NCBI RefSeq assembly: GCF_003334765.1
Contig: NZ_QOWT01000002.1
Strand: one strand, 5' to 3'
DNA length: 64,000 nucleotides
Source: Escherichia coli
GTDB lineage: Bacteria; Pseudomonadota; Gammaproteobacteria; Enterobacterales; Enterobacteriaceae
The notes under the pieces were generated by a model, which made no database searches, was not told where the DNA came from, and saw only the letters and a list, made by a program, of their open reading frames with translations. Below are positions 25,120 to 42,119 of the stretch, piece after piece (the stretch's first letter is position 1; every line of letters starts with the position of its first letter). Position numbers and translations under genes: made by a program.

Positions 25120-25203
25120 TATTCCCCTCTCCAGTTAATTATTGAGAATAATTATTACTTCACCTGATAAGCTGCGGATATCACATTCCTAACCGCAGCT
25201 ATT

Positions 25204-25312: not shown

Positions 25313-26551
25313 ATGCCGCAACAAAATTATCTGGATGAACTCACTCCGGCTTTTACGTCTTTACTGGCGATTAAAGAAGCCTCTCGCTGTTTATTATGTC
25401 ACGACGCTCCCTGTAGTCAGGCTTGCCCGGCACAGACCGATCCGGGGAAATTTATTCGCTCAATCTACTTTCGTAATTTTAAAGGCGCTGCCGAGACAAT
25501 TCGCGAAAATAATGCCCTCGGTGCCGTTTGTGCCAGAGTGTGCCCGACGGAGAAATTATGCCAAAGCGGTTGTACCCGTGCCGGTGTTGATGCTCCCATT
25601 GATATCGGCCGCTTACAGCGTTTTGTTACTGATTTTGAACAACAAACCGGAATGGAAATTTATCAGCCCGGTACTAAAACGCTCGGCAAAGTCGCGATTA
25701 TTGGCGCAGGTCCTGCCGGATTGCAGGCCAGTGTGACACTGACAAACCAGGGTTATGACGTCACGATTTATGAGAAAGAAGCGCACCCCGGTGGCTGGTT
25801 GCGTAACGGTATTCCGCAATTCCGGTTACCGCAATCAGTGCTGGATGCAGAGATCGCCCGTATTGAAAAAATGGGCGTGACCATTAAGTGCAACAACGAA
25901 GTCGGTAACACACTCACCCTTGAGCAGCTGAAAGCAGAAAACCGCGCGGTACTGGTCACCGTGGGGTTATCAAGCGGTTCCGGGCTACCGCTGTTTGAGC
26001 ATAGTGACGTTGAGATTGCCGTCGACTTCTTGCAACGTGCACGACAGGCGCAAGGCGATATCAGCATTCCACAAAGCGCATTAATTATCGGCGGCGGTGA
26101 TGTCGCGATGGACGTAGCCAGCACGCTGAAAGTTCTCGGCTGTCAGGCGGTAACTTGCGTAGCGCGTGAAGAGTTAGATGAGTTTCCGGCAAGCGAAAAA
26201 GAGTTTACCAGCGCCCGGGAGCTGGGCGTTTCGATCATCGATGGATTCACGCCAGTAGCCGTGGAAGGCAATAAAGTCACGTTTAAGCATGTACGGTTAT
26301 CGGGCGAACTGACGATGGCGGCAGATAAAATTATTCTCGCCGTCGGTCAGCATGCCAGACTAGATGCCTTTGCGGAGTTAGAGCCGCAGCGTAACACCAT
26401 CAAAACACAAAATTACCAGACCCGCGACCCGCAAGTCTTTGCTGCTGGCGATATTGTTGAGGGTGACAAAACCGTGGTCTATGCCGTGAAAACCGGGAAA
26501 GAAGCCGCCGAGGCGATTCATCACTATTTAGAGGGAGCTTGCTCATGTTAA
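25313..26551 (+). CDS. preT: NAD-dependent dihydropyrimidine dehydrogenase subunit PreT
   Basis: Fe-S cysteine clusters and GAGPAG FAD/NAD fold. Confidence 0.9.
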
Positions 26552-40016: not shown

Positions 40017-40898
40017 TTAACGCGGCACATTTGCGGGATCGCAATAGTCCAGAAAGCGCCGTAGCGCGTTGGAAAGGTGTTTTTGCCGATGATGTATACG
40101 CCACAACGTACGCATCAGGCGCGGCAGAGGGACCGCAACTTCACTTAATGTGCCTGCCTGCAATTGATCTTCAATCACACGTCGCGACAGGCAACTAATT
40201 CCCAACCCATGACGCACCGCATGTTTGATTGCCTCGGAGTTACCTAATTCCATCGCCATCTCAAACTTCGGTAAATGTGACAGCAACAGATAATCGACAA
40301 TCTCCCGCGTGCCGGAACCGCGTTCACGCAGGATCCACGGCGCAGCGGCCAGCTGTTCTAAGGTGACCGGACCACGGGCCAACGGCGAAGTCGGCGCGGC
40401 GAAAACCACCAGCTCGTCTTCCAGCCACGGTTCAGAAATGATTTCAGTGCTGTGGCACGGTCCTTCAATAAAGCCAATATCAACGCGGAAATCCAGCACC
40501 GCTTGCATCACGTCCTGGCTATTCCCAACGCTAAGTTCAATCGGCAACTGCGGATAATCATGGCGATAACGGGCGATAACTGCAGGCAGAATGTAGTTAC
40601 CGATGGTACTACTGGCATAGATACGAATCGCGCCGTTGTCTTCGCGAAACAGTTGTTCGATTTCAACCGCCTGTTCAAGCAATGCCAACGCACGCGGATA
40701 GAGCAGCCGCCCGTGTTCATTAACAACCAGTCTTTTCCCCACGCGATCAAACAGTTGCACGCCAAGCTGCCCTTCCAGGTCGGTCAAGGCTGCGCTCACT
40801 GCTGATTGCGACAACGCCAGCATCACCGACGCCTGGGTGGTTGATCCACTTTTCAATACTTCTGCAAAAACTTCCAACTGCCGGAGGGTGATGTGCAT
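40017..40898 (-). CDS. yeiE: LysR-family transcriptional regulator YeiE
   Basis: N-terminal LTTR HTH; divergent from yeiH. Confidence 0.85.
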
Positions 40899-40996
40899 AG
40901 TCGCTTACCACTTATAAAGATTAATTATAAATATATAATCAATTTTATTTTTAAACCAGTTAGTCGTAACCTTATGCCCGGTTAAAGGAGAGGGTT

Positions 40997-42046
40997 ATGA
41001 CGAATATCACCTTACAGAAACAACATCGTACACTGTGGCATTTTATTCCGGGGTTAGCCCTGAGTGCAGTTATCACCGGGGTCGCCCTGTGGGGTGGTTC
41101 CATTCCCGCGGTTGCGGGTGCCGGGTTTAGTGCCCTCACCCTCGCAATCTTGTTGGGGATGGTTTTAGGCAACACCATCTATCCGCACATCTGGAAAAGC
41201 TGTGACGGTGGTGTGCTGTTTGCCAAGCAATATTTATTACGTCTGGGTATCATTCTTTATGGCTTCCGTCTGACGTTCTCGCAAATTGCCGATGTCGGTA
41301 TCAGTGGGATCATCATTGACGTGTTGACGCTGTCCAGTACCTTCCTGCTGGCTTGCTTCCTGGGGCAGAAAGTGTTTGGTCTGGATAAGCACACCAGCTG
41401 GTTGATCGGTGCCGGTAGCAGTATCTGTGGTGCTGCCGCGGTACTGGCGACTGAGCCGGTAGTGAAAGCGGAAGCCAGTAAAGTAACCGTGGCTGTTGCA
41501 ACCGTTGTTATCTTCGGGACCGTCGCGATTTTCCTCTACCCGGCGATATATCCGCTGATGTCTCAATGGTTTAGTCCGGAAACTTTCGGTATCTACATTG
41601 GTTCTACTGTGCACGAAGTGGCGCAGGTGGTGGCGGCAGGTCATGCCATCAGCCCGGATGCGGAAAACGCAGCAGTTATTTCCAAAATGCTGCGCGTGAT
41701 GATGCTGGCTCCGTTCCTCATCCTGCTGGCGGCGCGTGTTAAACAGCTGTCTGGGGCGAACAGCGGCGAGAAAAGCAAAATCACTATTCCGTGGTTTGCC
41801 ATCTTGTTCATCGTAGTTGCCATCTTTAACTCGTTCCACCTGTTACCGCAGAGCGTGGTGAACATGCTGGTAACGCTGGATACCTTCCTGCTGGCAATGG
41901 CGATGGCGGCGCTGGGTCTGACCACTCACGTCAGCGCGCTGAAAAAAGCTGGGGCGAAACCTCTGCTGATGGCACTGGTACTGTTTGCCTGGCTGATTGT
42001 TGGTGGTGGTGCGATTAACTATGTGATTCAAAGCGTCATCGCATAA
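40997..42046 (+). CDS. yeiH: UPF0324 inner membrane protein YeiH
   Basis: 349 aa polytopic membrane ORF. Confidence 0.85.
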
Positions 42047-42119
42047 ACCACTACATCTTGCTCCTGTTAACCCGCTATCATTACCGTTTTCCTCCAGCGG
42101 GTTTAACAGGAGTCCTCGC

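Follow-up and report, generated by a model that had tools for sequence, protein, structure and literature searches.

The spacer between the divergently oriented genes yeiE and yeiH of Escherichia coli contains a block of 56 bp that is almost invariant among Enterobacteriaceae, and an explanation in which this module, with its three alternating half-sites H1, H2, and H3, serves as a composite operator of the LysR-type regulator YeiE is considered rather probable. An interrupted dyad, TTATAA-N7-TTATAA, to which an earlier note had drawn attention as a candidate LysR-type operator, would make up the left part of this operator (H1+H2) with the canonical LysR T-N11-A geometry, while H2 and H3 would form a better-kept palindrome. 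Judged from the comparative sequence data, the dyad lies inside a genuinely constrained regulatory module and is probably only a part of the true YeiE operator. The YeiE-YeiH pair is a recently recognised enteric sulfite-stress circuit that bears on food preservation and on gut as well as systemic infection; since the circuit has already been published, nothing is added here at the gene level. All positions (Table 1) are those of the window, that is, the whole stretch of 64,000 nucleotides that was analysed; the corresponding coordinate of NC_000913.3 is obtained by adding 2,208,720, by which the conserved block becomes 2,249,624-2,249,679.

Table 1. Features of the yeiE-yeiH region in window coordinates
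Feature	Position	Strand	Sequence or size	Remarks
yeiE	40017-40898	minus	293 aa	LysR-type sulfite-sensing regulator; ORF with 100% identity to MG1655, annotated YeiE
yeiE start codon	40896-40898	minus	CAT	
yeiE-yeiH spacer	40899-40996		98 bp	29.6% G+C (70% A+T)
Conserved block	40904-40959		56 bp	Putative composite YeiE operator with divergent core-promoter elements
Dyad in 6-N5-6 register	40913-40929		TATAAA-GATTA-ATTATA	Half-sites H1 and H2
Half-site H1	40913-40918		TATAAA	
Half-site H2	40924-40929		ATTATA	
Half-site H3	40934-40939		TATAAT	
Overlapping palindrome	40920-40943		ATTAATTATA-AATA-TATAATCAAT	General form ATT(A/G)ATTATA-N4-TATAATCAAT
Palindrome core	40924-40939		ATTATA-N4-TATAAT	Perfect; half-sites H2 and H3
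yeiE -10, predicted	40929-40924	minus	TATAAT	Predicted start near 40917
yeiH -35, predicted	40944-40949	plus	TTTATT	Weak; 17 bp upstream of predicted -10
yeiH -10, predicted	40967-40972	plus	TAACCT	Predicted start near 40979
yeiH Shine-Dalgarno sequence	40985-40990	plus	AAGGAG	Read from sequence; conserved in relatives
yeiH start codon	40997	plus	ATG	
yeiH	40997-42046	plus		YeiH-family inner-membrane protein; ORF with TIGR00698 match

The yeiE-yeiH locus and the dyad in its spacer

The window consists of K-12-type E. coli DNA. Between 40000 and 42100 its identity to MG1655 is 100%, and none of the 5,426 complete genomes of the species lacks this region; lysP flanks the gene pair on the left and nfo on the right. 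YeiE reaches 534 bits against the NCBIfam equivalog NF040889 (cut-off 480), is also matched by LysR family models, and matches the PDB entries 8sbh (E. coli "Transcriptional regulator YeiE", E=2e-135) and 7erp (Cronobacter YeiE, E=1e-107); the structure of the effector domain has been solved for the proteins of both bacteria. The eight residues listed as lining the sulfite in Cronobacter YeiE (PMC8931317), namely, S96, S97, N126, S127, E145, R191, S195, and T197, are all found at the same positions in the YeiE of the window. YeiH scores above threshold with TIGR00698/PF03601 (568 bits, cut-off 232.6). The protein is needed for sulfite resistance, of which it is the main determinant in Salmonella Typhimurium (PMC12880088).

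Control of both genes by YeiE is already known biology. YeiE has sulfite as its ligand, and the Cronobacter regulator binds the cysJI promoter with or without it (PMC8931317). In E. coli, more than 100 YeiE sites were obtained by ChIP-exo (PMC6237786), and a later paper citing that work reports a strong peak on the regulatory region of yeiE itself. In S. Typhimurium, EMSA with purified YeiE gave a shift of a fragment that includes the complete spacer, PyeiE is up in a yeiE mutant, which amounts to autorepression, and is raised by sulfite, and PyeiH stays silent if either sulfite or yeiE is missing (Westerman et al. 2026, PMC12880088). The promoter constructs used there carry an identical core including the 19-bp motif TTATAAAGATTAATTATAA. 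The proposal in the earlier note that YeiE autoregulates and controls yeiH is, hence, borne out by published work, that is, by the Salmonella EMSA and reporters and by the reported E. coli ChIP-exo peak. According to the authors of PMC12880088, the DNA sequences contacted by YeiE are still to be defined, and a base-level YeiE operator in the yeiE-yeiH spacer was not found in the literature, which offers the fragment-level EMSA of Salmonella and the ChIP-exo peak of E. coli only.

The observation from which that proposal had started is partly confirmed. The AT-rich 98-bp spacer between divergent starts is as described, TTATAA-N7-TTATAA is exact at 40912-40930 (TTATAAAGATTAATTATAA), and a dyad of the ATA-N9-TAT type is present at 40914-40928, together with T40915-N11-A40927. 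Wrong is the placement of the dyad at the centre between the start codons: its centre, 40921, is separated by 22 bp from the start codon of yeiE and by 76 bp from that of yeiH, and the midpoint of the spacer is at 40947/8.

TTATAAAGATTAATTATAA is the sole match of its kind within the 64-kb window and 0 of 100 whole-window shuffles contain a match, while the bare ATA-N9-TAT occurs at chance frequency (10 found versus 9.2 expected). When the 98-bp spacer was shuffled 5000 times with its dinucleotides preserved, the exact motif was recreated in 0.12% of the cases. A perfect 6-N7-6 dyad of any sequence appeared in 7% (7-11% of local shuffles), and any perfect dyad with 6-bp arms and a gap of 3-9 bp in 31%, rising to 46% within the A+T-rich core. 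Due to the local A+T richness, the dyad is thus not rare, and on sequence alone it exceeds chance only weakly. It does carry features of a LysR operator, which are the adjoining divergent LysR-type gene and the interrupted dyad with T-N11-A, the latter being weak alone, as similar arrangements arise in 7-31% of local shuffles. The significance of the region derives from cross-species conservation and not from dyad statistics.

That the motif would be owned by another regulator (SoxS/MarA/Rob, Fur, IHF, or H-NS) or by an RNA element is most improbable. An older claim of a "sox box" ahead of yeiH is taken up again in one paper, and a library-based prediction gives many factor sites for this gene. 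The divergent LysR-yeiH pair itself is kept from Enterobacterales to Beta- and other Gammaproteobacteria, and such wide conservation points to the cognate regulator. A SoxS/MarA/Rob box was rejected as a candidate, with zero marbox matches in the spacer even when three mismatches are allowed, and 135 matches versus 141 expected window-wide; an RNA element was likewise rejected, with zero Rfam families at E <= 1.

Two marbox-like matches to AYNGCACNNWNNRYYAAAY were seen outside the spacer. One is ATCGCATAAACCACTACAT (two mismatches) at 42038-42056 on the plus strand, between the yeiH stop and nfo; nfo is known to be controlled by SoxS, which fits a match beside it. The other is ACTGCACTCAGGGCTAACC (one mismatch) at 41052-41070 on the minus strand, inside yeiH. 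Neither is significant alone, because the pattern is at chance level window-wide.

Conserved block and overlapping palindrome

The first protein searches did not reach beyond relatives of at least 89% identity, and distant loci were reached via the plasmid collection and other seed proteins. The comparison set comprises 80 Enterobacteriaceae yeiE loci, which yield 73 distinct Enterobacteriaceae spacers; added via the plasmid collection and contig look-ups were loci of Klebsiella aerogenes, Yersinia, Proteus, Serratia (two), Rahnella, Ewingella, Pantoea, and two further lineages. Over the 73 distinct spacers, the block has the almost invariant consensus CTTACCAcTTAT-nnn-GATTrATTATAAATATATAATCAATTTTAyyTTTAArCCAg, and the columns just outside it (40899-40903, 40960-66, and 40975-83) are near-random. 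Its identity to E. coli in other genera is 94%, whereas the first 150 nt of yeiE reach 79% and third codon positions 48%. The distance from the block to the yeiH ATG is fixed, while that to the yeiE ATG lies anywhere between 5 and 558 bp, owing to insertions on the yeiE side. Between the block and a TAnnnT hexamer at 40967-72 there are zero indels; these occur only downstream of the hexamer.

At six loci of Citrobacter and relatives as well as in Klebsiella aerogenes (locus L085, 1200-1400), the stretch from the yeiE ATG to the block contains inserted repeats of the ERIC type, recognisable by the ERIC primer sequences (...CCCCAGGAGCTTACAT.AGTAAGTGACTGGGGTGAG...). The insertion of the Citrobacter freundii group falls into the left edge of the block, between CTTA and CC, and from ACCACTTAT rightwards the block is untouched. 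The yeiE-yeiH spacer of Yersinia pseudotuberculosis extends over 657 bp (locus L081, 784-1446), and in Pantoea sp. 1.19 a DUF1232 gene sits between yeiE and the block. The two genes are also found apart from each other, with yeiE adjoining a LacI-family gene, without yeiH, in Brenneria tiliae, and yeiH adjoining a DsrE-family gene, without yeiE, in Pantoea piersonii.

By the comparison of sequences, the best-kept symmetry within the block is an overlapping palindrome, better than the dyad of the earlier note; its left arm is the right hexamer of that dyad. The 10-bp arms of the palindrome are complementary at 9/10 positions in E. coli and at 10/10 in genera with G at 40923. Pair retention was computed over 37 distinct sequences from across Enterobacterales. 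In the dyad (40912-40930), the four outer pairs, TTAT-N11-ATAA, are retained in at least 95% of these sequences, as opposed to 35%, 32%, and 16% for the three inner pairs. In the palindrome, retention of the five core pairs is at least 97%, and that of the outer pairs 81%, 57%, 76%, 100%, and 97%. Invariant within the dyad are T40913, T40915, and A40927-A40930; H1 is weakly conserved past TAT and reads TTT in Rahnella and Ewingella, where the left arm of the dyad is TTTT. The half-sites display conservation only, with no compensatory covariation.

The N4 spacer of the palindrome varies (AATA, AAAA, AAAT, AAGT, AAGA) around fixed arms, as seen in Serratia, Rahnella, Ewingella, Pantoea, and two further lineages, as would be expected where a dimer binds. 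The left arm reads GTTATA in Serratia, Rahnella, and Ewingella, corresponding to TATAAC on the minus strand; since this reads as a poor -10, the constraint is unlikely to come from RNA polymerase alone.

The interpretation given in the earlier note is, overall, partly supported. Its claim that YeiE acts from the dyad has partial support from conservation, which extends to the well-retained outer pairs and not to the poorly retained inner pairs, and the right hexamer, though invariant, doubles as the left arm of the better-conserved palindrome. It is rather unlikely that the dyad alone (ATAA-N7-TTAT, T40915-N11-A40927) would be the high-affinity recognition site of YeiE, with H3 and the bases to its right serving as lower-affinity activation site and promoter elements. 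Such an assignment would accord with the canonical T-N11-A geometry, with the invariance of T40913, T40915, and A40927-A40930, and with a centre at about -58 to the predicted yeiH start and over the predicted yeiE -10 and start, which is the classical arrangement. The 6-N5-6 geometry is, moreover, that of the FinR box, the first arm of which is required for binding, and it matches ATAAC-N5-GTTAT beside the yeiH homologues of Acinetobacter and Pseudoalteromonas. The same assignment is weakened by inner pairs kept in 16-35% only, by a left arm that shrinks to TAT or TTT, and by the ease with which a perfect 6-N7-6 dyad arises in local shuffles (7-11%). An invariant right arm would be expected just as well from the H2+H3 palindrome or from the yeiE -10.

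Position-weight matrices of either dyad revealed no convincing second site in the E. coli cysJ-queD spacer, where the best scores were 1.8 and -16.6 compared to self scores of 33.9 and 45.8. Since the matrices derive from one orthologous site and are over-fitted to it, this test of the two dyads was dropped. Two points from the comparison speak against the composite operator, one being that H1 is poorly kept beyond TAT, and the other that the cysJ promoter of E. coli is without a matrix-detectable site although Cronobacter YeiE binds the cysJI promoter.

The only moderate matrix match elsewhere in the window is at 25139. At 25136-25154, there is a perfect 8-N3-8 palindrome, TAATTATT-GAG-AATAATTA, in an intergenic position upstream of a 412-aa ORF at 25313, which corresponds to preT/yeiT, downstream of yeiS, on the K-12 map. 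This palindrome may be an operator for some other regulator.

Predicted promoters and the proposed sulfite switch

In 78 distinct sequences, the predicted -35 element of yeiH is TTTAyy or TTCnyT at a fixed position, and in 76 of 78 distinct Enterobacterales sequences TAnnnT is found at exactly the offset of 40967-72. T40967, A40968, and T40972 are invariant and the inner bases of the hexamer vary (TAACCT, TACTCT, TAGTCT, TATCAT, and others), which is the signature of a -10 element; the spacing, being rigid up to this hexamer, points to it, and not to 40934-39, as the yeiH -10. Relative to the predicted yeiH start, the block spans -75 to -20, by which it matches the footprint of a LysR-type tetramer in size and position. 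The centre of the dyad would be at about -58 to that start, which is itself deduced from the conserved TAnnnT, and overlaps the predicted yeiE -10 and start.

Shimada 2014 proposed a yeiE promoter, TTAAAA-19-TATAAT, with the same -10 as predicted here, and a different yeiH promoter, TTACCA-15-TATAAA. A scan of 40600-41300 for consensus sigma-70 promoters and terminators gave nothing, neither predicted promoter passing it; this null result is compatible with activator dependence and uninformative. Both the empty scan and the differing yeiH promoter of Shimada 2014 count against the composite operator. No measured start of yeiE or yeiH is among the entries listed in four data sets on transcription starts or promoters, namely, Cappable-seq of E. 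coli, in vitro transcription by ROSE, Shigella M90T, and the ChIP-exo promoters of Salmonella.

A direct repeat, GAGGGTGATG / GAGGGTTATG, at 40884-40893 and 40990-40999 overlaps both divergent start regions. The first copy lies inside yeiE codons 2-5 on the opposite strand and the second comprises the tail of the yeiH Shine-Dalgarno sequence and the ATG; the repeat is probably due to chance.

Each of H2 and H3 is also a perfect -10 hexamer, one per strand, so that their invariance could reflect RNA polymerase and not YeiE. An arrangement in which the core consists mainly of RNA-polymerase elements, that is, two back-to-back consensus -10s and UP-like A/T tracts, with the dyads as a by-product and with YeiE contacting other bases of the block, such as CTTACCAC (40904-11) or TTTAAACCAG (40950-59), is nonetheless improbable. 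TATAAT occurs on both strands (plus, 40934-39; minus, 40929-24), and dyads are common at such base composition. RNA polymerase holoenzyme alone selected the spacer in genomic SELEX, and promoters with these hexamers have been proposed (Shimada 2014). The CTTACC-like and TTTAArCCAg stretches are conserved as well, TTACC recurring in Acidovorax. Polymerase elements would not readily account for the GTTATA arm of Serratia, Rahnella, and Ewingella, which is a poor -10 and yet invariant as a half-site, or for conservation that reaches past the hexamers (ATTrAT / ATCAAT). The rigid spacing to TAnnnT favours that hexamer as the yeiH -10, and the Salmonella PyeiH is silent without YeiE and sulfite.

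According to the composite-operator model, a YeiE tetramer would occupy the entire block. In the absence of sulfite, the predicted yeiE -10 and start (40929-40917, minus strand) would be covered, which would result in autorepression, and the -35 region of yeiH would be covered too, by which yeiH would be kept silent. Sulfite bound in the effector domain would reposition the promoter-proximal DNA-binding dimer. After this shift, RNA polymerase would use the weak PyeiH, and repression of PyeiE would be eased, the latter matching the Salmonella reporters. The half-site contacts, the promoter elements, the start sites, and the sliding of the dimer are what we infer within this scheme.

A further-reaching variant, which is possible but doubtful, would take the 24-bp palindrome ATT(G/A)ATTATA-N4-TATAATCAAT as the primary YeiE element instead of the canonical T-N11-A box. 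Its arms would be the back-to-back consensus -10s, so that one dimer would clamp transcription in both directions, and H1 would be a weak auxiliary half-site to which sulfite slides the dimer by one helical turn. If this were true, both the orientation of the half-sites and the use of -10s as operator arms would be unusual for a LysR-type regulator.

The comparative map of a rigid 56-bp module with three alternating half-sites and a predicted weak yeiH promoter narrows mutagenesis for the repressor-to-activator switch of YeiE, and it could guide the design of sulfite biosensors. The gain is incremental and would come as no surprise to the specialist.

Comparison with known and distant systems

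The closest counterpart is the yeiE-yeiH pair of S. Typhimurium (PMC12880088), with orthologous genes, the same divergent layout, and an identical core. The Salmonella spacer has 120 bp compared to 98 bp in E. coli, the extra ~22 bp lying between the yeiE ATG and the block. Binding in Salmonella is demonstrated on a fragment of several hundred bp, with no operator bases defined, while the evidence for the E. coli locus is from ChIP-exo only.

FinR of P. aeruginosa is described as a YeiE homologue. Its validated operator in the finR-fprA spacer, TATCCATATTCTGGATAAGCATTATCCAGA, has the structure TATCCA-N5-TGGATA-N5-TATCCA, that is, two overlapping palindromes with a common middle arm, and it precedes the target promoter and covers the promoter of finR, which is negatively autoregulated; mutation of the first arm abolished binding, while mutation of the last arm did not (Boonma et al. 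2017, PMC5302815). The spacer analysed here is similar in that a 6-N5-6 dyad with T-N11-A (40913-29) is followed by a second palindrome with a common middle arm (40924-39). It differs in the half-sites, which are TATAAA/ATTATA/TATAAT versus TATCCA/TGGATA with only the outer TAT...ATA in common, the FinR half-site TATCCA being absent from the E. coli spacer. Further differences are the spacer of the second palindrome (N4 versus N5), the target (yeiH versus fprA), and the length of the intergenic region (98 bp versus 273 bp). In view of the FinR parallel, the dyad of the earlier note could still be a recognition site despite its degenerate left arm. The parallel also suggests that H1+H2 and H2+H3 are alternative or joint positions of YeiE DNA-binding dimers, one helical turn apart.

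Palindromes are also found beside more distant yeiH homologues, such as AATGGTTATA-N4-TATAACCATT in Pseudomonas sp. MPC6 and ATTATA-TCTA-TATAAC in Polaromonas, while the LysR-yeiH pairs of Acinetobacter and Pseudoalteromonas have ATAAC-N5-GTTAT, with the geometry of the dyad of the earlier note. These palindromes are hints only, because the DNA-binding helices differ from that of YeiE; as proof for the E. coli site they were rejected, since, in addition, the geometries vary by lineage. Spacers of betaproteobacterial-type LysR-yeiH pairs (L095/L096, 1419-1500; L084, 1330-1449; L086, 967-1060) have TACCTGTT...TTATA..GGAA.TATCCGTTT.AC in common, and FinR-like 6-N5-6 boxes are seen in Acidovorax (TATCCG-TTTGA-CTGATA) and Methylibium (CAACCCG-TTGGA-CGGGTTG). 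From these spacers it would seem that the operators of this regulator clade descend from a box of the FinR type.

A generic LysR operator, as known from BenM, CbnR, and OxyR, consists of a T-N11-A recognition dyad near -65 and an activation site near -35. The E. coli spacer shares with this scheme the divergent gene pair, the A+T-rich T-N11-A dyad, the tract of ~56 bp over the promoter of the regulator, and the weak -35 of the target. It deviates from it in that the best symmetry, TTATA-N4-TATAA, is centred near -47.5 and not near -65, as counted from the predicted start, and in that the half-sites are oriented opposite to those of the ATAC-N7-GTAT type.
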